DNA of 64,000 nucleotides from Escherichia phage vB_EcoS_HdH2 (NC_048748.1), one strand, 5' to 3'; counted from the first letter of the stretch, positions 5,786 to 58,189 are shown. Numbers and translations are program-made. The notes: generated by a model not told the origin, from the letters alone.

Positions 5786-5818
5786 AGATTCATAAATTTG
5801 AGAGAGAGGAGTTTAAAT

Positions 5819-6523
5819 ATGGCTGGTTCTCGCAGAAAGAAACATATCCATGAAATCCCGGATGAAGTCTTTAAAAAAGTTATAGAGCATCTGGAGAACG
5901 GTGGTACTAAGAAAGCAGCATGTGAAATGCTCGGCGTATCATCCAACCCAACTATGGAAAGGATGATAGAAGAGTGGCAAGATCGCCAAATTCAAGTTGC
6001 CGAGATGAAGAAAAAGAAACGTGGCACACTCATTGAAGGCATTGAGTTAGCTAACGTTATTGAGCAGTATTTATCTGGTGATTCTTTTGAAGAAATTGCC
6101 GATCGTAATTACCGCTCTGTAGCAATGGTTAAATCTGTTCTGGAACGATATGGTGCTCTACTTCGTTTGAACGATATTGTAGATCCATTGAATCCTCCAA
6201 TTATTCCTGATGATGCTGTAGCAGAAGAATTTGCAGTTGGTGAGCTTGTTTGGGTTCCTGGGTACCAGTGTATCGGTGAAATCAAAAAAGCAATGGATAA
6301 TCCTGTTGGCTGTTATCGAGTCTGGTTACTATCGGAAGGCAAACAACAGAACGTTCATTATATGAATTACGAGCTGGCCTCTGTTAAACATCTGGAAAAG
6401 TTAGGGGTTGATGTAAAGTCTCTGGGGTATAAATGGACTCGGGAAGAAGTCATTACGTTGATTAACGAAGCTGTTAAGGCCGCCTTGAAACTTGATAAAG
6501 AAAAAGGAAAACGCCGTGAGTAG
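5819..6523 (+). CDS. putative DNA-binding protein with N-terminal helix-turn-helix
   Basis: ATG 5819 preceded by GAGAGAGGAG; the ORF-track TTG at 5798 lies only ~12 nt from the -10 hexamer. HTH-like segment GGTKKAACEMLGVSSNPTMERMIEEW. Confidence 0.65.
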   Translation: MAGSRRKKHIHEIPDEVFKKVIEHLENGGTKKAACEMLGVSSNPTMERMIEEWQDRQIQVAEMKKKKRGTLIEGIELANVIEQYLSGDSFEEIADRNYRSVAMVKSVLERYGALLRLNDIVDPLNPPIIPDDAVAEEFAVGELVWVPGYQCIGEIKKAMDNPVGCYRVWLLSEGKQQNVHYMNYELASVKHLEKLGVDVKSLGYKWTREEVITLINEAVKAALKLDKEKGKRRE

Positions 6524-6767
6524 ACTAACTGATTTACTTAAAGATGGGGAAGTAAAAACACTATATCGTAGAAGCTGGGATAACGATAATAACGGCTTAG
6601 TGTTACTAACTTTAGATGCTGACTCGGATGTAGCTACTCAGCATACCTGGGTAGCCGGTAACTATCCATACAGCGAGGTTGTTTCATTAACAGTATGCGA
6701 AGCTATTGCAGACGATTGGGAGGTTGCCAGCATCGAGGATATGCTCGCTGTTGGCCTGGTGGAGTAA
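6516..6767 (+). CDS. hypothetical protein
   Basis: Likely GTG start at 6516 after AAAGGAAAA (ORF track extends to 6492). Confidence 0.45.
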   Translation: MSRLTDLLKDGEVKTLYRRSWDNDNNGLVLLTLDADSDVATQHTWVAGNYPYSEVVSLTVCEAIADDWEVASIEDMLAVGLVE

Positions 6768-6784
6768 CTACTTAAAAATTTCAG

Positions 6785-6813
6785 TTGCTTAATCCTACAA
6801 TTCTTGATATAAT
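6785..6813 (+). promoter_or_regulatory. sigma70-type early promoter
   Basis: TTGCTT, 17-bp spacer, TATAAT. Confidence 0.7.
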
Positions 6814-6870
6814 ATTCTCATAGTTTGAAAGAACTATTCTGTTTAATTCTTAATTAAGGAAATATAAAAT

Positions 6871-7281
6871 ATGACTACTCCAACTCAGTGGACTGATGAA
6901 CTGTTCGAAAAAATGTCTTCCGAATACGTTGCTCGTATGGAGCAATTCCCAGAGGATGAACGTCCGGGTGTTAGCATGGAAATTGTTAGCGAAATTGCCC
7001 AGGAAAACGGCGTAACTCCGAACGGTTTTCGTATGAAGCTGACTAAAGCAGGTTTGTATATCAAGAAAGCTGCTGGCTCTGCTTCTAAATCTAGCGCATC
7101 TACTGGAGAAAAAGCTTCCAGTGGTTCTCGTACCTCCAAAGCCCAGGCTCATGCCGACCTTCGTTCAGCATTCTCTGATGCTGGCCTAGCACCAGATTTT
7201 CTGGATGATGCAATTATCGACAAACTGACCGGCAAAGCGGCTGCTCATCTGGCAGAAGCAATCCGAGCTATCACTAAGTAA
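6871..7281 (+). CDS. hypothetical early protein with host-optimal codon usage
   Basis: 136 aa; GC3-rich codon choice (ctg, cgt, ggt, gct, ccg); segment EIVSEIAQENGVTPNGFRMKLTKAGL resembles the repeat modules of 10183..10950. Confidence 0.75.
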   Translation: MTTPTQWTDELFEKMSSEYVARMEQFPEDERPGVSMEIVSEIAQENGVTPNGFRMKLTKAGLYIKKAAGSASKSSASTGEKASSGSRTSKAQAHADLRSAFSDAGLAPDFLDDAIIDKLTGKAAAHLAEAIRAITK

Positions 7282-7317
7282 TTTTTAGATAAATCCACCA
7301 ACAAAAGGAACACAGTT

Positions 7318-7614
7318 ATGACCAAAGCTGAAATTATTGCACAATGTGAAAAATTTGGTGAGTTTTATCTTCATTACGAGAAACTTCGTCAGAAAGGAAC
7401 CACATACCTTCAGGGTACGATGGAATTTGATCCAGCCCAGGATAAATATCTGGCTGAGCGTATTAAACGTGAACGTATTCGTAAAGCGAAAGATGATGAA
7501 ATCCTTGTCTTCTCTCGTACTAATGATAGTTTCCGTTTTATTCCTGTCGAGAAAGTCCGTCGTGTGACTAGCCTCCAATCAGAGTTAGATCGTGCCTCTC
7601 CAGTAGGCCGATAA
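7318..7614 (+). CDS. hypothetical protein
   Basis: 98-aa ORF with AAAGGAA upstream; followed by terminator. Confidence 0.6.
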   Translation: MTKAEIIAQCEKFGEFYLHYEKLRQKGTTYLQGTMEFDPAQDKYLAERIKRERIRKAKDDEILVFSRTNDSFRFIPVEKVRRVTSLQSELDRASPVGR

Positions 7615-7624
7615 GAAACCAATT

Positions 7625-7648
7625 AGCCCCTATATGGGGCTTTTTGTG
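7625..7648 (+). terminator. intrinsic terminator
   Basis: agcccc-tatat-ggggct followed by ttttt. Confidence 0.7.
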
Positions 7649-7664
7649 TATTTGGGATATGTAA

Positions 7665-7973
7665 ATGAGCGAACAGGTAAATCAAAACTATGAAGGACAC
7701 GTTGATGACCAGTCCATCATACTTTGGGAGAAGGAGGGAGAACAAGTAAGATTAACAGTATCTGAATTTCGTGGGAATCTATACATGGGTATTCGTTACT
7801 GGCTTCTTGATATTAATGATGAATGGTTTCCAACGAAATCTGGCTTCTCTTTTCCTTACACTCTAGAAACAACATCACAGCTTTTCTATGCGTTTACACA
7901 GATTCTTAGCGAATCTGAGGTTTTACATGAAGTACAGAAACGAGCTGAAGAACTCAAAGCCAAGAATGCCTAG
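7665..7973 (+). CDS. hypothetical protein
   Basis: 102-aa ORF; terminator immediately downstream. Confidence 0.6.
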   Translation: MSEQVNQNYEGHVDDQSIILWEKEGEQVRLTVSEFRGNLYMGIRYWLLDINDEWFPTKSGFSFPYTLETTSQLFYAFTQILSESEVLHEVQKRAEELKAKNA

Positions 7974-7990
7974 TTCTTGGCTTTTTCTTT
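7958..7990 (+). terminator. intrinsic terminator
   Basis: agccaagaa / ttcttggct stem followed by ttttcttt; the stop codon sits in the loop. Confidence 0.65.
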
Positions 7991-8000
7991 ATAAATGTAT

Positions 8001-8029
8001 TTGCTTTCAACTCAGTTTTGTTATATAAT
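8001..8029 (+). promoter_or_regulatory. sigma70-type early promoter
   Basis: TTGCTT, 17-bp spacer, TATAAT, then ATTTATATAAATTGATAAG box. Confidence 0.7.
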
Positions 8030-8058
8030 ATTTATATAAATTGATAAGAGGATCAATT

Positions 8059-8247
8059 ATGAAAGTAACACTTCCAAAAATTCAAGCAAAGCTAAATCTA
8101 GTATCGAATGCTAGAAATAACTATCTAGATAACTTTGGTGGAATCAACGATAAAGCGTACAAAGATGCGTGGTTGAAAGAAGCGCAAGAGTTAGCCGATC
8201 TCATTGCTCAGTATAATAAAGAACTACGGGTAGAAATGAATGACTAA
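8059..8247 (+). CDS. hypothetical small protein
   Basis: ATG 8059 after AAGAGGA; ORF track begins at an upstream TTG. Confidence 0.5.
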   Translation: MKVTLPKIQAKLNLVSNARNNYLDNFGGINDKAYKDAWLKEAQELADLIAQYNKELRVEMND

Positions 8248-9211
8248 TGTAAAAGACTTTATTAAACGCTGTCAAGAAGCATATTATCAAGGCATGTCTT
8301 TAATCTCTGATGAAGAATATGATCGCCTGGTAAAACGCTTCCCATTAGAAGAAGAGATTGGGCCTAAGGGTGATATTCCACATCTGTACCGTATGTATTC
8401 TTTACAGAAAGTTTATTATAATCGTGGAGATAAACCTCCGTTTAACCCATTAGGTCAGGTAGAAACTGATAAGTTAGATGGTTGTGCGATTTCTCTGCTA
8501 TATATTAATGGCGAATTTGTTCAAGCACTAACTCGTGGTAATGGTATTCTAGGAAATGATGTCACAAGCAACGTAAGATTGCTGAACATCCCCAAAAAGA
8601 TTTCCCAAAAAGTACCTACTCAAATCACTGGTGAAGTTCTAATTACAAAAGAAGTAGAAAATAAACGTAACTTTGCCTCTGGTGCTATTAACCTCAAAGA
8701 TAGCGATGATTTCGTACAACGTATCGGGGAAGGTGGTTTAATCTTCGTTGCATATGGTATCCAGTGTTCTGCTGAATCTGTAGGTATTACAGAAGCGTAT
8801 TTAAAAGATATGCTTTGGCTGGAGAATGAGAACTTCTTAACAGTTGTTAATGTGCGTTCCTTCTTTAAATGGATTCCTACTGATGGTAAAGTTGTTCGTA
8901 TTAATGACAACAACAAATTCTTCCGAGAAGGCTGGACTAATAAATTCCCTCGTGGAGCATTCGCTATTAAAGAGGATGAAGAAGGCGAGATTACAACTCT
9001 TACTAAAGTTGAGTGGCAGGTAGGGGCTTCTGGTAAAGTAACTCCAGTTGGTTATTTCGAACCGGTAATTATTGATGATGCTACGATTGTTAAAGCGACT
9101 CTCAATAACGTTGATTATATTAACTCTCTCGATCTAGAGATCGGTTGCCAGATTCGAGTGATTCGTGCTGGTGGTGTAATCCCGTGCATAGTAGAGCGAG
9201 TATACGATTAA
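8240..9211 (+). CDS. ligA: NAD-dependent DNA ligase, subunit A (adenylation/OB part)
   Basis: KxDG adenylation motif in ETDKLDGCAISLLY; 323 aa, equivalent to the N-terminal two-thirds of bacterial LigA. Confidence 0.85.
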   Translation: MTNVKDFIKRCQEAYYQGMSLISDEEYDRLVKRFPLEEEIGPKGDIPHLYRMYSLQKVYYNRGDKPPFNPLGQVETDKLDGCAISLLYINGEFVQALTRGNGILGNDVTSNVRLLNIPKKISQKVPTQITGEVLITKEVENKRNFASGAINLKDSDDFVQRIGEGGLIFVAYGIQCSAESVGITEAYLKDMLWLENENFLTVVNVRSFFKWIPTDGKVVRINDNNKFFREGWTNKFPRGAFAIKEDEEGEITTLTKVEWQVGASGKVTPVGYFEPVIIDDATIVKATLNNVDYINSLDLEIGCQIRVIRAGGVIPCIVERVYD

Positions 9212-9261
9212 TACATAACCCTTTGCTACCCATCTACCATATCGGAATTATAAAGTGGTTA

Positions 9262-9290
9262 TTGACATTTTCGCCGCTTAGGTATATACT
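9262..9290 (+). promoter_or_regulatory. sigma70-type promoter between the ligase halves
   Basis: TTGACA, 17-bp spacer, TATACT. Confidence 0.6.
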
Positions 9291-9354
9291 ATTATCATTC
9301 AGTTGAGGGATAGAAAGTTATGGCGAGGGTAAGCAAAGTTAATTAAAATTGTAG

Positions 9355-9383
9355 TTGCTAAATGCTTAAATACTTGCTATAAT
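9355..9383 (+). promoter_or_regulatory. sigma70-type early promoter
   Basis: TTGCTA, 17-bp spacer, TATAAT, then ATTTATATAAATTGATAAGGAAG. Confidence 0.7.
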
Positions 9384-9413
9384 ATTTATATAAATTGATA
9401 AGGAAGAAATTTG

Positions 9414-10190
9414 ATGAAAATCGAAATTCCAACACAATGTCCCTCTTGTGGTTCTAAGCTAGATCTTGTCAACGGACAATTATTCTGTCGTAATAAGTCC
9501 AACTGTCCAGCGCAATCAAGTAAGTTAATTGAGAACTTCTGTACAAAAATGAAGTTAAAGGGCTTTGGCCCGAAAACTATTGAGAAGCTGGAGCTGACGA
9601 AGATTTCAGAACTATTTTACCTAACCGAAGAAGATTTGGTTAGAGCCGTGGGTAGCAAGGTTGCCGCTAAGTTAATTAGCGAATTAAATACTAAAGTTCG
9701 CGGAGACATTGACTTTGGTTCAGTTCTCGGTTCTTTAGGAATCCCTCTAATTGGAGAGGTTGCAGCAAAGAAATTATCCCAAAATTGCACTAGCTTTCAA
9801 GATGTGAGAGCTGACGGCAAGGCTGGAGAAAACTATAAAGCCTGGCTAAATTCCCCACAAGGCAAGGATGTTATCGAATTACCGTGGAAATTCTCAAATG
9901 GTATTAAGGGTGCTAAAGCTGAGGTCATCACTGATGGTCTAGTAGCCCAACCAAACGGAATAACGGTATGTATTACCGGATCTTTGCAAGATTTTGCAAA
10001 TCGAACGGATGCAACAAACTATTTAGAAGGTCTAGGATATACGGTTAAGAAATCCGTTACTAAAGACGTCAAATACCTAATCTGTGAGGATGAATCGAAG
10101 CGTTCTTCCTCATCTTATAAGAAAGCCGAAACGAATGGGATAGAAATCCTGTCGATTAAAGAACTATTGGAGAAAAATAATAATGTCTAA
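9414..10190 (+). CDS. ligB: NAD-dependent DNA ligase, subunit B (Zn-finger/HhH/BRCT part)
   Basis: Cys4 zinc finger CPSCGSKL...CRNKSNCPAQ typical of LigA C-terminal half; 259 aa. Confidence 0.85.
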   Translation: MKIEIPTQCPSCGSKLDLVNGQLFCRNKSNCPAQSSKLIENFCTKMKLKGFGPKTIEKLELTKISELFYLTEEDLVRAVGSKVAAKLISELNTKVRGDIDFGSVLGSLGIPLIGEVAAKKLSQNCTSFQDVRADGKAGENYKAWLNSPQGKDVIELPWKFSNGIKGAKAEVITDGLVAQPNGITVCITGSLQDFANRTDATNYLEGLGYTVKKSVTKDVKYLICEDESKRSSSSYKKAETNGIEILSIKELLEKNNNV

Positions 10191-10950
10191 ACTGAACTGG
10201 AACGTAGAAGGTGTAACCGAGTCTCTGAAAGCAAAAGCCACTGCTCTGGGTGTTGATGTAATCTCTCAAGAACAAGTAGCTGCTATCGCCGCTGAACTGG
10301 CTGCTGAAACTGGCAAAGACGTTACCGCTCGCTCTGTTGGCTCTAAGCTGCGTAAAGAAGGTTTCGAAGTACAGAAAGCTAACGAAGTACAGAAATCCCC
10401 GTGGACTCCTGAGCAGGAAGCTGAACTGGTTGATTTCCTGAACGCTCATGCTGGTCAGTATACTTATGCTGAAATCGCTGCTGCTGTAGCTGGTGGTCAG
10501 TTCGGTGCTAAACAGGTACAGGGTAAGATCCTGAGTCTGGAAATGACCGCTTCTGTTAAACCAACTGAAAAAGCTGCTGCTGTTCGTTCCTTCACTCCTG
10601 ATGAAGAAACTGATTTTGTTAATCAGGTTGTTGCTGGGGCTACTATTGAAGCTATCGCTGCTCACTTCGGTCGTAATATCAAACAGATCCGTGGTAAAGC
10701 TCTGAGTCTGCTCCGTGAAGGTCGTATCGCTGCTATGCCGGTACAGGAAACTTCAAGTGCTAAAACTCGTGAAGATCTGCTAGAAGGTCTGGATCTGGTT
10801 AACATGACCGTTGCTGAGATCGCTGAGAAAACTGGTAAGTCTGAGCGTGGTGTTAAATCTATGCTGTCTCGTCGTGGTCTGGTTGCTAAGGACTATGATG
10901 GTGCCGCTAAGCGTGCTAAACTGGATGCAAAAGCTGCGGCTGCTGAATAA
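10183..10950 (+). CDS. hypothetical abundant early protein with four tandem ~55-aa HTH-like repeats
   Basis: 255 aa; four modules of pattern (I/V)AxxxGxxxxxxxxKLxxxG; strongly host-optimal codon usage unlike neighbours. Confidence 0.8.
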   Translation: MSKLNWNVEGVTESLKAKATALGVDVISQEQVAAIAAELAAETGKDVTARSVGSKLRKEGFEVQKANEVQKSPWTPEQEAELVDFLNAHAGQYTYAEIAAAVAGGQFGAKQVQGKILSLEMTASVKPTEKAAAVRSFTPDEETDFVNQVVAGATIEAIAAHFGRNIKQIRGKALSLLREGRIAAMPVQETSSAKTREDLLEGLDLVNMTVAEIAEKTGKSERGVKSMLSRRGLVAKDYDGAAKRAKLDAKAAAAE

Positions 10951-10967
10951 TCTGGTAAATTAAACCT

Positions 10968-10999
10968 AAGGGGAGGGGGCTATGCTCCTTCCCCTTTTT
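10968..10999 (+). terminator. intrinsic terminator
   Basis: aaggggaggg / ccttcccctt stem followed by ttttt. Confidence 0.7.
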
Positions 11000-11032
11000 G
11001 CATTTAGAAGGCACGAAAGCGTGCAAAGGAGA

Positions 11033-12505
11033 ATGACCTTGTTTAACGTGCAAGCTGTAGTGTTGAAGATGCTTCTAGCTTCCGAACAGAAGCAAATAGC
11101 ATTGGAAACATTCTCAAAACTGCATAAAGATCATTTTAATGACGCTTTCTCCTCAATTTACCAAGCCGTCCAGAATTATTATAAAAAATATAACACAATG
11201 CCGTCCATTGACGCACTTATGCTTGAAGCTAATAGGAACGCCCGCCTTTCTCAAGCTCTAGTCGTCTTAGCTAACACTCAAATTCCAGAAGTGAGCATGG
11301 AACAGGCACTTGAAGTCCTAGAAGCCGAATATACACAGGATTTATTCCTGAAGCTTCTAGAAACAGACGTGCTTCAAGATTTAACAATGCTGGATCAGGG
11401 AGAAATTCTCAACCGAGTTGCCTCCCTTCACTTAAAATTAGAAGAGAAAGTAACGAATACTGGAAAAGTATTCAACGCAGATAACATGCGTATTTTCCAG
11501 AGAGAAGAAGATACCAAACTGAACTTAATCGCTCTTGGTATTTGTAATGAGTTCGACGCTCAAATCGGTTTAGCTCGCACAGAAACGTTACTGCTTGGTG
11601 GTTGGCGTGGTACTGGTAAATCCATTATCTGTTCAAACATACAGGTTCAGCAATATTTGAATGGGGATATTGCTCCATACTTCTCAATTGAGATGAAAGA
11701 ACATGAAGTATTTAGACGTAATCTAGCCATGTTAGCTGGTGTATCAGCATTAGCAATGCGTAATAATACTCTAGAAGGTGCACCTCTATTGAGATTAGCC
11801 AGAACTAGAGCTAGAATGTTTAATGGGGGTGAAGAGCTTTTCGACAACTTCGTTAAACAGTACACAATGGCTAAGATGAGTGATTTCTACGATATGGAAA
11901 GTAAGCTAATAGAAGGGTATGAGCTACATACTCCTATGATTATTGTTTATGATCCTGAGCTGTCTATTACAACAGTTGACGTAGAATTAAATAAATTAGT
12001 TGCTAGATATGGGGATAAAGTTACAGTAGCTTTATTGGACTATATTAACCAAACCCGACTTCCAGATTCTAAAACCATTGATATGTATGACTGGAAAGAA
12101 CAGATGGTTGTTAGCTCGTCTTTCAAATCTATCTGTCAGAAACATAACGTGGCTGGTGTAGCTCCTTACCAGATCGATCAAGATGGTAGAACACGTATGT
12201 CAAAAGGGATTCTTGATTCCGCAGACATGGCTGCTAATCTTAATGCTGCAAAAGCTGATAATGGTCAAGGTGCTATTATGTTTGACTTCGTTAAGACCCG
12301 TTCTTCTGATAGCGTGAAGTTTATGCCTAAAATGAACTGGGAAACCCTGCGGATGGATAACACTACCAACCTAGCAATGGAAGATATATCTCAAATGGAA
12401 GCTGAGTTCGTTATCCCTATTGAGAAGGATAAGCCAGCTCAATCTAAACGTGCTAAGAAAGACAAAGCTGAAAATTCAACAGGTGAACAGGCCAGCGATA
12501 TATGA
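11033..12505 (+). CDS. DnaB-like (RecA-fold) replicative helicase; start uncertain
   Basis: Walker A LLLGGWRGTGKS about 190 aa from N-terminus; ORF-track start 10982 lies inside the upstream terminator hairpin, so ATG 11033 (after AAGGAG) is preferred. Confidence 0.6.
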   Translation: MTLFNVQAVVLKMLLASEQKQIALETFSKLHKDHFNDAFSSIYQAVQNYYKKYNTMPSIDALMLEANRNARLSQALVVLANTQIPEVSMEQALEVLEAEYTQDLFLKLLETDVLQDLTMLDQGEILNRVASLHLKLEEKVTNTGKVFNADNMRIFQREEDTKLNLIALGICNEFDAQIGLARTETLLLGGWRGTGKSIICSNIQVQQYLNGDIAPYFSIEMKEHEVFRRNLAMLAGVSALAMRNNTLEGAPLLRLARTRARMFNGGEELFDNFVKQYTMAKMSDFYDMESKLIEGYELHTPMIIVYDPELSITTVDVELNKLVARYGDKVTVALLDYINQTRLPDSKTIDMYDWKEQMVVSSSFKSICQKHNVAGVAPYQIDQDGRTRMSKGILDSADMAANLNAAKADNGQGAIMFDFVKTRSSDSVKFMPKMNWETLRMDNTTNLAMEDISQMEAEFVIPIEKDKPAQSKRAKKDKAENSTGEQASDI

Positions 12506-18615: not shown

Positions 18616-18900
18616 ATGCTTACAGAGCCTGATGCTCACCAATTATTGGTCGGTTCCTCATTCATTTTAAATGAATCAACAATAGTTAATAATCCAAATA
18701 AATTGTCTAATAGACAACTGGCAGAATATCTAGGAATTTTAAGTCTACGAAATTATGCCGAATACAAGTTTACAAACGATCCTAGTTTGGACATGCAATA
18801 TGTTCCAGTATGGATACCACGTTTAGTAATCGACACTAACCCACTAATCGCAATTAACAAATCGAAATTAATCTTTAAAGAGGAAATAAAATATGGCTAA
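18616..18900 (+). CDS. hypothetical protein (may begin upstream at a non-ATG codon, see findings)
   Basis: 94-aa ORF from ATG 18616 with no SD; frame is open upstream to 18538, which has a strong SD. Confidence 0.5.
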   Translation: MLTEPDAHQLLVGSSFILNESTIVNNPNKLSNRQLAEYLGILSLRNYAEYKFTNDPSLDMQYVPVWIPRLVIDTNPLIAINKSKLIFKEEIKYG

Positions 18901-19666
18901 GTCTTGGGGCGAAACTACTGGCGGTTCTAACGATAAAATCGAATTCCTGAAGTTCAACAACGGTATCACTCGTGTCCGTATCGTTTCTGGTGTTCTTCCA
19001 CGTTATGTCTATTGGCTGACTAATAAAGAGGGTAGCGTAGCTCCTTTCGAATGTCTTCGTTTCAACCGTGACAAAGAGAGCTTTGTTCGTGGTAAAGCTG
19101 ATCCGGTTCATGAGATGGGTTTCTTCGAGAAAGAGCTGGATAAAGATGGTAATCGTGTTCCGCTGAAACCGAAGAAAAACTATATCGCTTTTGTTATCGA
19201 CCGTTCTGATAACAAACTGAAAGTAATGGAAGTCAAAGCTACTATTCTGAAAGGCATCCAGTCTATCATGAAGCAGTTGAATCTGGCAACTCCGTTTGAT
19301 ATTGATATTTCTATCGAGAAAAAAGGCAAAGGTTTCGATACTGAGTATGATGTACAGCAGATTGCTGCTATGCAGTTCCAGATTAAGCTGCAAGATCCTA
19401 ACAGTGCAGAATCTAAGCAATATGCTGCGGATGTAGATCTGATTGGTGAAGCTATGTGTGATGAAGATGGCGACATCATTAAGTTCGAAAAAGTTCCTTC
19501 TCTGGAACAAACCTATCCGGTTCCTACCTATGAAGAGCAGAAAGAAGCAATTCTAGCCTTCATGGAGGGTCGCGAGAATAAAGATGATGATGCCAAATCT
19601 GGTAATAGCAATGCAGGCTCCCAGAAAGGTATTGACTCAGAAGCTGCAAGCGATCTGGATGACTAA
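18893..19666 (+). CDS. abundant early protein with acidic C-terminal tail; candidate ssDNA-binding protein (D11 position)
   Basis: 257 aa; host-optimal codons; SD AAAGAGGAA; C-terminus DSEAASDLDD; terminator downstream. Confidence 0.6.
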   Translation: MAKSWGETTGGSNDKIEFLKFNNGITRVRIVSGVLPRYVYWLTNKEGSVAPFECLRFNRDKESFVRGKADPVHEMGFFEKELDKDGNRVPLKPKKNYIAFVIDRSDNKLKVMEVKATILKGIQSIMKQLNLATPFDIDISIEKKGKGFDTEYDVQQIAAMQFQIKLQDPNSAESKQYAADVDLIGEAMCDEDGDIIKFEKVPSLEQTYPVPTYEEQKEAILAFMEGRENKDDDAKSGNSNAGSQKGIDSEAASDLDD

Positions 19667-40150: not shown

Positions 40151-40570
40151 TTACGCTTTTGAGCTACGAAAAGTGTCTAAATGGAACACTGTCTGGTTGA
40201 TCCAAGAATCAAACGCAGCAGAGTTCTGCATAAGCATTACAGCATTATCACGACTAAAGGGAACTTCAGTAGCAGGATCAGCATCTGTTTCAATCAGCAT
40301 GAGTTTTTCAACGTCACCCACAGTCAAACCAGTCCAACCTTTAATAGCAGCATCAACAAATGCTTCAATGAACTTATCATCATCCTGTACCTGAATCAAA
40401 GTACCATTAACCCACTCGTCACGCTTAGCAGAGGTGATAACTCGTTTAGAAGTAGCACGAGACATATAATTAAGCTCTAGCTTAAAGTTTGGCATACCTG
40501 GGTATGAAAGAGTGACAGTACGAGTATCAAGAGTAATATCTTTTAAGTTAATCATTTTTAATTTCTCCAA
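40151..40570 (-). CDS. putative tail assembly chaperone / tail protein
   Basis: 139 aa; position only. Confidence 0.35.
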   Translation of the reverse strand: MEKLKMINLKDITLDTRTVTLSYPGMPNFKLELNYMSRATSKRVITSAKRDEWVNGTLIQVQDDDKFIEAFVDAAIKGWTGLTVGDVEKLMLIETDADPATEVPFSRDNAVMLMQNSAAFDSWINQTVFHLDTFRSSKA

Positions 40571-41450
40571 AGAAATCTATTCTCACTGGGTCTGAAGAAG
40601 CAGTAGGTATAATATCCCACTCAACTTTATACACATCTGAGAAATCTAGGCGTTTTGTAATACGTGCTAAAGGAAAATCTATAGAAATATTATTATTTCT
40701 TATATTTAAAGGTACATCGGTCTCTGGTTCGATATTGTAAACCATATCTCCAGCAAAACGTTTTAAGTAATATAGAGAAATGGTTGCTGAAGCATTCATT
40801 TCATTTACATAGGCTCTTTTATTATTATAGATTTTATTTATGTCAAAAACACTCTTATCTTCTCTCCAAGAGCATTGCTGTTGAAAAGATAAAGAAGCGG
40901 AAATAAGGCCAGGTAAGATGCTACCGTTAGTAGAAGCTATTACTGGGCTATAAGATATTACTTCACCCTGTATAATAGAAGCTGCTTCTCTATATGTAGA
41001 TACTTCGGAGAATTTCCCTGACTCAATACCAACATTAAGAATTGGTATATTCTTATCTAAAGAAAAATCTACTGTAGATACATAGCAGTTCTCAAAGTAT
41101 ACACAGTTATTATCTTTATTTACTATATAGATATTAAACATAATAGGTTCAATATTGTTACTATATAGTGGTAGTAAGAAAGTATTACCTTTTCTATCAA
41201 AACCTAGCCATTCAAAGAAGTTAGCTTCAGTAAGAGTATTACTAAAATTTATTGCTAATGATATAGAAGAAGGAGTTTGAGCATTTATAATAGAGTCTGC
41301 ATAGTTAGTTCTACGATGAATAGTCCTACGAAGGGTCTTAAATTCTTCGTAGGAGGTTTGTACATCATAGTTTGATAGGGCATCAAAATGAAATGCCCTA
41401 CCATCATACTCAACTATAACTTTTGACTCTCGCATTAGAGAGTAGTACAT
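40548..41450 (-). CDS. tail protein (p140/p141-type position)
   Basis: 300 aa, directly downstream of tail tube gene. Confidence 0.4.
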   Translation of the reverse strand: MYYSLMRESKVIVEYDGRAFHFDALSNYDVQTSYEEFKTLRRTIHRRTNYADSIINAQTPSSISLAINFSNTLTEANFFEWLGFDRKGNTFLLPLYSNNIEPIMFNIYIVNKDNNCVYFENCYVSTVDFSLDKNIPILNVGIESGKFSEVSTYREAASIIQGEVISYSPVIASTNGSILPGLISASLSFQQQCSWREDKSVFDINKIYNNKRAYVNEMNASATISLYYLKRFAGDMVYNIEPETDVPLNIRNNNISIDFPLARITKRLDFSDVYKVEWDIIPTASSDPVRIDFFGEIKND

Positions 41451-41454
41451 TTAT

Positions 41455-42861
41455 TTAACCACCAGCACTAACTGTGATAGTTTTAGTACCTTCTACACCA
41501 GAACCATCTTTAGCTACAGCCTTCACAGTAACTGCACCAGTTCTAGAAGCATCGGCTGTTAATAGTCCAGATTCTGCATCAATCGTAGCTGCATTACCAC
41601 TAGAAATAGACCAAGTTACAGCCTTATTAGTAGCTTCTGGAGGTGTTACCTCAACAGACATCTGTAAAGTATTACTATTTGTTACAGAAACAGCCTCACC
41701 TGCCGATTTAACTGTAATGGATTTAACGGGAACTGGAGGAGTTTTAGCACCATCCCCCGTAGCAATCAGATTAGCCACAGTAGTTTTTGTATACTTGTTA
41801 GAAAATCCAAGATAACCTTCGTCACCAGTATCCAAATCTGTAGGAATAGCTTTAAACTCTACTGAAGTACCAAGTACATCATCAGTCTCAATAGTAGGGA
41901 TGTTAACGTGCGCCTGTTTAGCAACTAACACAGCTGCCGGTCGCTCATCATCGTATTCACCACCCAAAATAAGTGCAATTTCAAAACGGTTAACTACCTT
42001 AAGGGTTTTGACAAGATCTTTGTACAGTTCCATGGAACCAAGAGACTTATCATTAAGGTATGCTGTCAAAGAACCTGTTAACTCAAACGCACCAGTAAAT
42101 GAACCGATAGGAATATTTACACGTGACATAATATTCGGGGTTAGGTACGTGATGTTGTTATTAATGGTAAAAGTACCACCAGTAATAGGAATATCATATG
42201 CCTTATCAGAATCCATATCCTTAATTTTTAGGATAGTTAACTTGTTCTTAATGTAAGAACTCTGAATAGTCATATAGGTTTCATCATCAATACCTAATGC
42301 ATCTGGATCAAATGGTTGGCTATCTAACGGGATGAGCTGATTACCATTACCAGACCAGGTTACACGACCAATATCCTCAATATCAACGTTAACTTCTGCC
42401 TGGTTGATCTGGCAAGAGTCAATGTAACTCCACGCATTGTCAGTCAGAATGTAGATATGCAGCATAGCTAACTCATGGTAAGAATTATCTTTGAAGTTAA
42501 CCATGAAGTTAGTAGCATTATTATGTGCTCCAGTATCTCCGTCAAGATTAATAGCTTTACCACTAGAAAGTGCATGCCATAACATATAGTCAGGAACAAT
42601 TTGTTTGCTAGTAGTTTTATCCTTGTATGGCAGGATATATGTGGAGAAGCTCCACTCAGCCGCGTTCAAGGAATCGTTAAAACGTTTAGAACCACGAGTA
42701 GGACGCGGACCAGCTTCGTTAACAGTAATATCTGTTGAGTTACTGTCCTGACCCCAAGAAATATCATCCTGAACTAGAATCTCTTGCGTGTTGGTCTTAT
42801 CGTGACCAGTCTTAACCGTAGACACGAAGATTCGAGTATTACGTAATAGTTGTAAAGACAT
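41455..42861 (-). CDS. major tail tube protein (T5 pb6-like) with C-terminal Ig-like domain
   Basis: 468 aa; C-terminal Big_2-like segment ITVKSAGEAVSVTNSNTLQMSVEVTPPEATNKAVTWSISS...VTVKAVAKDGSG. Confidence 0.8.
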   Translation of the reverse strand: MSLQLLRNTRIFVSTVKTGHDKTNTQEILVQDDISWGQDSNSTDITVNEAGPRPTRGSKRFNDSLNAAEWSFSTYILPYKDKTTSKQIVPDYMLWHALSSGKAINLDGDTGAHNNATNFMVNFKDNSYHELAMLHIYILTDNAWSYIDSCQINQAEVNVDIEDIGRVTWSGNGNQLIPLDSQPFDPDALGIDDETYMTIQSSYIKNKLTILKIKDMDSDKAYDIPITGGTFTINNNITYLTPNIMSRVNIPIGSFTGAFELTGSLTAYLNDKSLGSMELYKDLVKTLKVVNRFEIALILGGEYDDERPAAVLVAKQAHVNIPTIETDDVLGTSVEFKAIPTDLDTGDEGYLGFSNKYTKTTVANLIATGDGAKTPPVPVKSITVKSAGEAVSVTNSNTLQMSVEVTPPEATNKAVTWSISSGNAATIDAESGLLTADASRTGAVTVKAVAKDGSGVEGTKTITVSAGG

Positions 42862-44715: not shown

Positions 44716-46092
44716 TTAAGCGGTAGCGTAAGCACCGGATACAACACCATTACTAAAGTAACGTTGCAGGTTAACACGCTGAGTAACGTAGTATGCATCA
44801 CGCTGTTTACCAGCTTGGCGCTCACGTTCAACAGTAACAGCACGCTGACGTGGCATTACGAAGTTATCTTTATAAACAATAACTGCGAACTCTTTCTCAG
44901 CCGCTTTAGCTGGGAAGTACTCAGAAACCACAACCGGCAGACCATAAATACGACCAACCTGACCTTGCAGTTTAACAGCATCGTTACCAACCTGTGCAAC
45001 ATCCTGCCATTCTTCATCTTCCAGAAGATCATAATAAGCATCCATAGATACGATAAGTACCAGTTTGCTCAGTTTCAGACCATGACGGCCCAGTTTACGA
45101 CGCAGTTTAGAGATAGTTTTAGCAGTTACCAGAACAGAACCATCAGCTTTAGCTTCAGTAGTAACTTTAGCACCATCATCTTCAGCCAGTTTCAACAGAC
45201 CTTTCGGCTTACCAGTACCATCACCAGTCATAAAAGCTTCTTCGATAGAAACAGCGTGTGCTTCAATCAGACGCTTACGCAGCAGCGGCAGCAGGGAGAA
45301 GATTGCATCTTCTTCAGTTTCATCAGTAATGAAGGACTTAGCAGCCAGTTTGTAGGTTTTAAAACTAATTTCAGTTAATGTACCTTTAACTTCGTTACCA
45401 ACAGTAGCATCAGTACCGTAGGAACCAGCATCTACCCAAGTAGCTTTTCCAGCTTCAGGCTCAACCAGCATAGTAAGAATTTTGCTGGACATTGGCAGTT
45501 CATCGAACAGTGCACCAACTACTAACTCTTTCTGCAGGTCACGAAGGATACGGGTAGAGAAAATAGTTTCGTAGTTTTCACTGGAAACCTGTACAGAGGA
45601 AGAAGTATTAACAGCTTTAACGTGGGCTTTACCATGTTCAGTTTCAAATACGTCCTTCTCCATCATATAAGACAGGAGAACTAGTTTTTCAACTTCATCT
45701 TCAAAAGCTTCCTGAGTACCATACAGTGCTTTAGCTACACTATCACCGACGAAGGAACGACCTTCACGAGCTGCTAGCAGAGATTTAATTTCATCCTGAA
45801 GACCAACAATGGTTTCCTGCTGCTTTTCTACAGTCTGTGCGAACAGTTCTGCGCTCTTTTTAGATTTTTCATCCAGGGACTTAACCAGTTCCAGAGCTTG
45901 TTCCAGTTTCTGACGATCTTCGCCAACTGCTTTAGAAACCAGGTCATTCATACGAGCCAGTTCTTTTTCTTCCTGCTCTTTACGCATACGTTCAGCTTCC
46001 TGAGCTTTCTGAGCAGCGGTCAGACCTTCCAGAGATTTAGCCAGATCACCCAGACCAAGTTCTTCTTTCAGCTTATTAATATCAATAGTCAT
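44716..46092 (-). CDS. major capsid protein precursor (T5 pb8-like, HK97 fold)
   Basis: 458 aa; host-optimal codon usage; N-terminal coiled-coil scaffold-like region. Confidence 0.9.
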   Translation of the reverse strand: MTIDINKLKEELGLGDLAKSLEGLTAAQKAQEAERMRKEQEEKELARMNDLVSKAVGEDRQKLEQALELVKSLDEKSKKSAELFAQTVEKQQETIVGLQDEIKSLLAAREGRSFVGDSVAKALYGTQEAFEDEVEKLVLLSYMMEKDVFETEHGKAHVKAVNTSSSVQVSSENYETIFSTRILRDLQKELVVGALFDELPMSSKILTMLVEPEAGKATWVDAGSYGTDATVGNEVKGTLTEISFKTYKLAAKSFITDETEEDAIFSLLPLLRKRLIEAHAVSIEEAFMTGDGTGKPKGLLKLAEDDGAKVTTEAKADGSVLVTAKTISKLRRKLGRHGLKLSKLVLIVSMDAYYDLLEDEEWQDVAQVGNDAVKLQGQVGRIYGLPVVVSEYFPAKAAEKEFAVIVYKDNFVMPRQRAVTVERERQAGKQRDAYYVTQRVNLQRYFSNGVVSGAYATA

Positions 46093-57781: not shown

Positions 57782-58189
57782 TTATTCGCCTGCGGCTTGT
57801 TTTACTTCATCGGCAACGCCTAACAGCTGCGCCACGGCGTCCAACGTTTCTAATTTTGCGCTTTCCAGTGATGCCAGATCGTCAACGTCTTTGATAATGC
57901 CGGAATCAATGGCATGTTTAGCGATAACACGCACATAATGCGCTTTACGAATGGAACTGCCGCCGCCAACTTTACGCGGCTTATCGCTTTTCTGATACGC
58001 TTTCGCGCTGGTCAATTTTGAGCGAACGGACACGGGGGAGGCCGCACCTACTGCTTTCGCAATCTCTTTCAAGCCGTCGCTATTTGCGAAATCTAAACCG
58101 TTTTCATTGATTAGCTGCTGATACATGGAAACAGCCTGCTGGGTGTTTTCTTCATTCCAAGAAAATTTTGCGGTTTTAACGTTAGTCAT
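57782..58189 (-). CDS. hypothetical pre-early protein
   Basis: 135 aa; AGGAG SD. Confidence 0.55.
   Translation of the reverse strand: MTNVKTAKFSWNEENTQQAVSMYQQLINENGLDFANSDGLKEIAKAVGAASPVSVRSKLTSAKAYQKSDKPRKVGGGSSIRKAHYVRVIAKHAIDSGIIKDVDDLASLESAKLETLDAVAQLLGVADEVKQAAGE

Follow-up and report, generated by a model that had tools for sequence, protein, structure and literature searches.

We analyzed a 64,000-nucleotide stretch of Escherichia phage vB_EcoS_HdH2 (NC_048748.1), referred to here as the window, with a focus on two early genes whose products of 255 and 136 amino acids (aa) correspond to D5 and D3 of T5-like phages. Taken as a whole, the evidence makes it very probable that D5 is an abundant double-stranded DNA (dsDNA) binder composed of four helix-turn-helix (HTH) modules and encoded by codons tuned for abundance, with D3 as a smaller paralog. 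D5 itself is a known DNA-binding protein, described as having effects on both replication and the expression of late genes (McCorquodale 1979, as cited in PMC12630848). Our study adds to this a description of its four-module anatomy, its codon statistics and its link to D3 and to the pre-early protein A2.

A megablast search with window positions 6500-11200 as query matched 482 phage records, the best of them (Phage NBSal003, NBEco001 and Escherichia phage vB_EcoD-Elw) 97% identical over the full length, and by this similarity we assign the window to a T5-like phage, Tequintavirus, family Demerecviridae. A preliminary description of this DNA had drawn attention to open reading frames (ORFs) of 255 aa at 10183-10950 and 136 aa at 6871-7281, and both are present on the plus strand. 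It had also listed, besides nucleoid or RNA-polymerase binding, a D5-type DNA-binding protein among the candidate functions, and the 255-aa ORF can indeed be identified as D5 itself, the early, abundant protein that binds dsDNA in T5-like phages and serves them as a late-gene factor. This ORF matches phrog_323 ("transcriptional regulator, D5-like") in PHROGs over residues 1-253 (E = 1.2e-71), is annotated "D5 protein" or "transcription factor" in a 97%-identical genome (OR621298), and is identical at 254 of 255 positions to bas33_0040 of phage Bas33. More than 725 homologs were found, and D5 occurs in 901 phage records across Demerecviridae; the match to D5 orthologs over the full length supports membership of the T5 D5 family, phrog_323. 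Similarly, the 136-aa ORF matches phrog_1725 ("DNA binding protein") over residues 1-136 (E = 3.1e-49), is labelled "D3 protein" or "DNA binding protein" in relatives, agrees with bas33_0046 at 132 of 136 positions, and is assigned to the already known D3 gene. The local gene order reads origin-binding helicase, D2, a small regulator, D3, a 98-aa ORF, a PC4-like protein, ligase subunits A and B (ligB), D5, replicative helicase, primase and DNA polymerase. The position of D5 between ligB and the helicase/primase/polymerase block, a feature of the phrog_323 family, is kept in the window, Elw, NBSal003, Bas33, Proteus phage PM135 and Vibrio phage Chester. The T5 D5 product and that of the window are thus the same gene, with 255 aa and the same ligB-D5-helicase synteny, and nothing of substance differs between them.

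D5 was predicted to consist of four tandem HTH modules. An AlphaFold2 (AF2) model built on 51 homologs had a mean predicted local distance difference test (pLDDT) score of 93.9 and a predicted template modeling (pTM) score of 0.54, values at which the domains are confident and the mutual orientation of the modules is uncertain. The modules, of 48-59 aa each, span approximately residues 6-64, 72-124, 135-186 and 193-240, in agreement with the four tandem HTH-like units of about 55 aa proposed in the preliminary description, and module profiles gave the same picture. Module 1 (10198-10374, plus strand) is a predicted three-helix HTH with helices at residues 11-22, 29-43 and 49-58, and is the module common to A2 and D3. 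Module 2 (10396-10554, plus strand), a Myb/GcrA-like three-helix HTH, begins from W74 and has helices at 76-88, 95-101 and 109-118. Module 3 (10585-10740, plus strand), the most GcrA-like, has helices at 139-150, 155-162 and 166-178, and module 4 (10759-10902, plus strand), an HTH of the sigma-70 region 4 type, shows two of the three helices in the model (210-217 and 221-231), the first being missing. A C-terminal helix (aa 240-254; 10900-10947, plus strand) follows the conserved DYDGAAKRAKLD segment; in this part of the protein G240 is invariant, and D237, A241 and K246 are nearly so. Residues invariant in the family fall in the third helix of the modules (R50/K55/L56/R57, Q113/G114/K115/L117 and G171/K172/L174, together with L228 of module 4), and the linkers VQKA, VKPTEK, MPxQ and DYDGAAKRAKLD are conserved.

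The similarity among these modules was assessed by pairwise Smith-Waterman scores against composition-preserving shuffles, with D3 included, and by hhalign of module sub-alignments. Modules 2 and 3 were the closest pair (shuffle z 8.4; hhalign 96.6%, 5.6e-10), and module 4 resembled D3 (z 7.2; 88% with the D3 N-terminal module), in keeping with the proposal that the 136-aa protein carries one similar module. Module 1 was related to module 4 (z 4.6; 61%) and to D3 (z 4.1). Lower z values of 2.3-3.3 were obtained for modules 1-3, 2-4 and 3-4, the last pair reaching 76% in hhalign, and module 3 reached 61% with the D3 N-terminal module. In the shuffles, modules 1-2 and the comparisons of modules 2 and 3 with D3 stayed at chance (z -0.4 to 0.4). 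As a control, the D3 C-terminal domain gave at most 0.4% in every hhalign comparison with the modules. The recurrent HTH fold of the four modules is therefore firm, and common descent is firm for modules 2 and 3 and for the group of module 4, module 1 and D3. The motif (I/V)AxxxG...KLxxxG, put forward earlier as common to all modules, fits modules 1 and 4 and D3 well, but modules 2 and 3 only loosely.

Which class of HTH these modules represent was examined with Pfam, hhalign and larger database searches. Module 4 scored above the Pfam gathering threshold for Sigma70_r4_2 (PF08281; residues 204-230, 28.6 bits against a cutoff of 25.7), that is, as an HTH of the sigma-70 region 4 type. Matches among the 51 D5 homologs comprised Sigma70_r4_2 in 49 (E <= 0.1), HTH_23 in 33, Myb in 22 and GcrA in nine (E <= 0.1, best 0.0032). 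Sigma-70 region 2, which is responsible for core binding and -10 recognition, gave no match in D5 at E <= 1 (Sigma70_r2); D5 is therefore not a sigma factor and shares only the HTH type with such proteins. On the other modules, HTH_23 (residues 151-184, module 3), Myb (PF00249; residues 71-100, 17.6 bits against a cutoff of 24.4) and HTH_33 remained below threshold. A Pfam scan of D3 returned no match, and a Foldseek search with the whole D5 model returned nothing significant. When six reference HTH sequences were compared with the modules by hhalign, each of the four modules had its best E-value with the GcrA domain; module 3 matched the GcrA DNA-binding domain at 84% (7.5e-6, 46/48 residues), and module 2 matched it at 47% and Myb R2 at 37%. 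Among 1.84 billion representative proteins, a profile built on modules 2 and 3 had 743 matches; apart from D5-like proteins, these included Myb proteins with several repeats and one genuine member of the GcrA family (51.4 bits with Pfam GcrA). Against Protein Data Bank (PDB) sequences, the D5 and module 2/3 profiles found no convincing match, the best being designed repeat or engrailed variants and Timeless (E 0.004-0.08).

GcrA of Caulobacter crescentus (PDB 5yiu; PF07750) shares with the D5 modules a W-T-x-E start, I-A-x-x-x-G in helix 2 and G-K in helix 3, and the fold of its N-terminal DNA-binding domain is found in D5. However, GcrA has a single module where D5 has four in tandem, and D5 lacks the sigma-70-interacting C-terminal domain of GcrA: neither D5 nor D3 of the window matched Pfam GcrA at E <= 1, and the AF2 model outside the modules contains only short linkers and one C-terminal helix. 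Membership of the GcrA family was rejected because of the missing sigma-interacting domain and of a Pfam score that is not above threshold. Myb/SANT arrays (PF00249) and tandem HTHs such as Tc3 transposase and Timeless likewise consist of tandem tri-helical repeats of about 50 aa starting with W/F-T/S-x-E-E. Nevertheless, the three regularly spaced tryptophans of Myb are absent from D5, which keeps only the first aromatic (W74 in module 2, F137 in module 3), and with the score below the Pfam threshold, Myb/SANT membership was rejected as well. From these profile comparisons, we place the modules in the Myb/GcrA/sigma-region-4 part of the HTH superfamily, outside the GcrA and Myb families proper.

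D3 has an N-terminal HTH module (aa 5-67), a disordered Ser/Ala/Lys linker (67-86) and a C-terminal three-helix domain (87-136). Its AF2 model (pLDDT 75.8) has helices at 9-23, 28-45, 50-59, 90-103, 113-117 and 121-135. Among the 75 ORFs of the window, a D3-family hidden Markov model (HMM) recovered only D3 (1.7e-74), A2 (8.6e-6) and D5 (4.9e-5), with the next ORF at 0.32. A2 is a 135-aa protein encoded on the minus strand at 57782-58189, in the pre-early terminal-repeat block, and is annotated as such in T5 and relatives. Like D3, it matches phrog_1725 over its full length (E = 1e-51), and the profile match of D3 places it in the same A2/D3 family. The D3 and A2 families aligned in hhalign at 92.3% (5.6e-7, 93 columns) across the HTH module, a GG-x-R/S-x-KA linker and the first C-terminal helix. 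The A2 and D5 families aligned at 96.0% (E = 3.8e-9), with A2 residues 9-64 on D5 residues 3-52, that is, module 1. A plain BLASTP comparison of D3 with A2 was not significant (E = 0.15). In precomputed Pfam assignments, every A2 homolog carries PF26822, as do some homologs of D3 and D5; our Pfam scan of four carriers returned no PF26822 match. These alignments indicate paralogy of A2 with D3, extending through most of the A2 sequence, and with D5 module 1. We found no discussion of this relationship in the searchable T5 literature, although it is implicit in phrog_1725 and PF26822. In T5, A2 and D3 share a PHROG, a similar length (135 and 136 aa) and the same architecture, whereas A2 belongs to the terminal repeat, is pre-early and binds A1, and D3 lies in the early replication block. 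Purified A2 is a dimer that binds dsDNA (bioRxiv 10.1101/866236), and it partners with A1 and is indispensable to the second step of DNA transfer (bioRxiv 10.1101/866236; 10.64898/2026.04.02.716235). Because D3 shares its architecture with this dimeric protein, it too probably binds duplex DNA.

The second main property of D5 is its codon usage. Indices were computed for 75 non-overlapping ORFs called in the window: the codon adaptation index (CAI) with Sharp-Li E. coli weights, the effective number of codons (Nc), and a z-score from 1000 simulations per gene in which the protein sequence was fixed and codons were sampled from window-wide synonymous usage, which removes the effect of amino-acid composition. 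D5 had the highest CAI and the lowest Nc of the window (CAI 0.708, z +10.3, Nc 29.9), far from the window median (0.245, -0.4 and 46.3, respectively). D3 was also biased (0.560, +5.2, 36.1), as were the major capsid protein (MCP) gene at 44716-46092 on the minus strand (0.646, +13.3, 33.3), DNA polymerase (0.372, +6.7, 40.2) and A2 (0.439, +3.2, 39.4). The 257-aa acidic-tail protein encoded at 18893-19666, which matches phrog_1607 (single-strand DNA-binding protein, 7e-106) and is assigned as the phage single-stranded DNA-binding protein (SSB), belongs with them (0.539, +7.5, 34.2). The three measures thus bear out the preliminary description, which had reported host-optimal codons in both proteins and grouped them with the capsid gene and the acidic-tail protein; usage in the window is not uniform. 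The ranking by Nc, which requires no reference table of weights, again puts D5 first. Individual codon counts show the same preference: in D5, CTG serves 17 of 19 Leu residues, compared with 12% in the rest of the window, CGT 11 of 12 Arg, GCT 38 of 44 Ala, GGT 16 of 19 Gly and ATC nine of 10 Ile. G+C content at third codon positions (GC3) is not elevated in D5 (0.32) or D3 (0.37), so the codon bias is not a GC effect. The overall GC content of D5 (0.47) derives from its Ala/Gly-rich composition together with the CTG and CGT codons, and the preferred codons are therefore mostly T-ending. No tRNA genes were found in the window, and no relevant prior study of codon usage in T5 came up in a literature search.

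Transcript data from a relative point in the same direction. Dataset S1 of PMC13250531 contains RNA-seq of the Tequintavirus Bas33 (HildyBeyeler, MZ501074) at 20 min after infection in two replicates, of which we read the rows for about 150 phage genes. Among these genes, D5 had the highest level in transcripts per million (TPM; 22868 and 16641 in replicates 1 and 2) and D3 the third (10586 and 8010). The upstream ligB reached 10850 and 7448, and the 98-aa ORF after D3 was also among the most abundant transcripts (8486 and 6106). MCP (5136 and 3009) and SSB (4996 and 3922) lay below these values, most replication genes lay at about 800-2300, and two sampled pre-early genes were below D5 (5207 and 2218). 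The very high expression that the preliminary description had read from the codons thus has a counterpart at the mRNA level, and codon indices and Bas33 transcripts together fit the abundant early expression of the phrog_323 family. In virion preparations of the Yersinia phage phiR2-01, the D5 homolog was among the most abundant proteins, although it is no known component of the T5 virion (PMC8624392).

These properties suggest how D5 most likely acts. As an early, very abundant protein with four small HTH modules, short conserved linkers and a C-terminal helix, D5 would bind double-stranded phage DNA stoichiometrically rather than catalytically. The third helix of each module, with the conserved motif [R/K]-x-V-x-[G/S]-K-L, would probably lie in the major groove, and a D5-coated template would support continued replication and the switch from early to late transcription. 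D5 would be made in amounts like those of the capsid protein and SSB, and selection has probably tuned its gene to host-preferred codons because many copies are needed quickly; its output would also be served by a strong predicted promoter of the sigma-70 type, together with a good ribosome-binding site and a predicted strong terminator. D3, the smaller paralog, joins one HTH module to a C-terminal helical domain through a flexible linker. A functional analogy is provided by p6 of phage phi29, an early and extremely abundant dsDNA-binding protein that organizes the viral genome and acts in replication and in the early-to-late switch. The likeness is limited to function, as p6 is not an HTH protein and its fold and binding mode are unrelated to those of D5. 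A 2026 preprint reports D5 as the trigger of the type IX retron-Kva2, with binding of retron msdDNA through the D5 HTH as an AlphaFold3 prediction (PMC13405049). Retron escapers carried changes in D5 (G53D, W74*, V149I and G232D), D3 (E30Q and G85D) and D2 (E76Q) (PMC13405049), and the D5 family alignment shows near-invariance at G53, W74 and G232, which lie in modules 1, 2 and 4, respectively.

Codon bias is the expected signature of abundance, and host-preferred codons in abundant phage proteins are ordinary. The host-like codons of D5 and D3 might nonetheless stem from recent horizontal acquisition from an enterobacterial genome and not from selection for expression, a view favored by the GC content of D5, which exceeds the value of about 0.39 in neighboring genes. 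Homologous 40-kb regions were taken from two distant members of the family. In Proteus phage PM135, D5 (56% identical) has the lowest Nc of 32 genes (36.8), with TTA as the preferred Leu codon (14 of 22); in Vibrio phage Chester, where D5 is 48% identical, D5, D3 and SSB have the three lowest Nc values of 41 genes (30.4, 33.6 and 34.5), and CTA serves 16 of 23 Leu residues in D5. The strong bias of D5 is thus conserved across lineages while the preferred codon shifts, which is the prediction of translational selection and argues against a recent transfer from a host. Moreover, D5 occupies the same syntenic place throughout Demerecviridae, the Proteus and Vibrio phages included, and its GC3 is not above that of its neighbors. 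Named D5 homologs are phage proteins, and the few records under bacterial names hold incomplete pieces whose identity to the phage protein is 99-100%. On the basis of synteny, the lineage-specific Leu codon and GC3, we reject recent acquisition of D5 and D3 as exceedingly improbable. It is also very improbable, if marginally less so, that codon bias and repeats alike are by-products of a low-complexity composition rich in Ala, Gly, Lys and Glu. Ala does make up 17% of D5, and the three module comparisons that stayed at chance would be compatible with such an artefact. However, the simulated z-scores of D5 and D3 are conditioned on the amino-acid sequence, the shuffles that gave the high scores of modules 2-3 and of module 4 with D3 keep composition, the equally Ala-rich D3 C-terminal domain scored near zero as a control, and the AF2 model shows discrete helical modules with pLDDT >90. 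This explanation was rejected accordingly.

A more serious alternative concerns the mode of action. Instead of forming a bulk coat, D5 could be a sequence- or structure-specific transcription cofactor that steers host RNA polymerase to late promoters, much as GcrA works with the sigma-70 holoenzyme. Relatives carry the labels "late gene transcription factor" and "transcription factor D5", and the mechanism of the T5 early-to-late switch is still unknown (PMC7472727). Yet no part of D5 matches the sigma-interacting region of GcrA, and Pfam GcrA was weak and confined to nine of the 51 homologs; in addition, such extreme expression, and a codon bias matching that of the capsid gene and SSB, are more in keeping with stoichiometric than with regulatory action. 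We therefore consider the cofactor role possible but on the unlikely side as a replacement for coating; the two are not mutually exclusive, and a GcrA-like role with RNA polymerase could coexist with coating. Several points weigh against the reading of D5 as an abundant four-module DNA coat. D5 is close to charge-neutral (34 K+R versus 35 D+E, from codon counts), which is unusual for a bulk DNA coat, and the orientation of its modules relative to one another is uncertain, as stated above. Module 1 is weakly similar in sequence to module 2, as are modules 2 and 3 to D3, and common descent of all four modules is therefore weaker than the common fold or the kinship of modules 2 and 3. The CAI values depend on the Sharp-Li weights as entered by hand, of which Nc and the raw codon counts are independent. 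Finally, the transcript levels come from one time point in a relative phage and from part of its genes.

Signals that may govern D3 and D5 were predicted as consensus matches, from a scan or by direct reading of the sequence. A promoter-like site upstream of D3 (6785-6813, plus strand) consists of TTGCTT, a 17-nt spacer, TATAAT and then ATATT, and a comparable site upstream of ligB-D5 (9355-9383, plus strand) consists of TTGCTA, a 17-nt spacer, a TG-extended TATAAT and then ATATT. ATATT after the -10 element is a reported signature of T5 early promoters (PMC7472727). A second sigma-70-type site (TTGACA-17-TATACT) lies at 9262-9290 on the plus strand. Both of the latter sites fall within the 200-nt spacer of a split NAD-dependent DNA ligase encoded at 8240-9211 and 9411-10190. 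The beginning of D5 and the end of ligB share 8 nt, and a putative Shine-Dalgarno GGAG (10169-10172, plus strand) lies 10 nt before the D5 ATG. In Bas33 (40374-41913, equivalent to window 9411-10950), the D5 TPM is about twice that of the overlapping upstream ligB (22868 versus 10850). We found no promoter-like site inside ligB on the coding strand; an unrecognized internal promoter, or stabilization of the 3' end by the terminator hairpin, could account for the difference.

Two hairpins complete the predicted transcription units. The scan placed a terminator-like hairpin at 7625-7641 (plus strand), closing the unit of D3 and the 98-aa ORF, which is consistent with the fall in Bas33 TPM from D3 (10586) and the 98-aa ORF (8486) to the next gene (1547). 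Directly 3' of D5, a strong intrinsic-terminator-like hairpin (10968-10996, plus strand) has a 13-bp G+C-rich stem followed by a T run. The ATG (10982) at which the replicative helicase ORF (10982-12505) is annotated to begin lies within this hairpin, and codons 1 to 17-19 of that ORF would fall within the hairpin and the T run. A helicase start near 11034-11040, just after AAAGGAGA, may be more plausible, and the annotated start in relatives is possibly wrong.

The early cluster around D3 contains further small proteins. The 98-aa ORF (7318-7614; phrog_3696) appears to share a transcript with D3, bounded by the promoter-like site at 6785-6813 on one side and the hairpin at 7625-7641 on the other. 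Upstream, a 91-aa ORF (6492-6767) overlaps the end of D2 and matches phrog_643 ("transcriptional regulator", 4e-21); its similarity to the Pfam Thoeris anti-defence Tad2-like domain is weak and below threshold (E 0.0099, 16.8 bits versus a cutoff of 25). In a 102-aa protein (7665-7973), Pfam recognizes a PC4 (transcriptional coactivator p15) domain at 32.1 bits, over a threshold of 25; the protein is another small nucleic-acid binder of the same cluster. A PC4-like protein has been described for T5. D2 (5798-6523), considered as a possible fourth protein with the module, contains HTH-like segments below threshold, namely HTH_23 at residues 28-49 and HTH_28 at residues 86-120 (21.9 bits versus a cutoff of 25), and it matched the D5 module 3 HMM weakly (E 0.018). 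The "helicase" label of D2 in PHROGs is doubtful because of its size of 241 aa and its HTH content. D2 is reported to be toxic on its own and is mutated in a retron escaper (PMC13405049).

The relationship among A2, D3 and D5 leads to a broader proposal, which we put forward as speculative and consider rather doubtful. In this scheme, T5-like phages would deploy a phage-specific GcrA/Myb-like HTH family in sequence, with A2 acting on the first-step-transfer DNA, followed by D3 and D5 on the full genome. D5 would then form a chromatin-like coat on replicating DNA that constitutes the missing early-to-late switch, and D3 would be an A2-like adaptor linking DNA to another early protein.

In summary, our analysis extends the description of D5 and D3 by an anatomy of four modules, a codon preference retuned from lineage to lineage, the top transcript level and the A2/D3/D5 paralogy, additions that are useful but incremental. 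D5 is among the few genes known to be required for the early-to-late transcription switch of T5. D5 is the most codon-optimized gene in three distant lineages and, among the genes read, the most transcribed in one phage with RNA-seq data. Knowledge of its four-module HTH array, of its codon optimization and of a module common to D3 and the essential A2 should be useful in designing binding, truncation and recoding work on these proteins.

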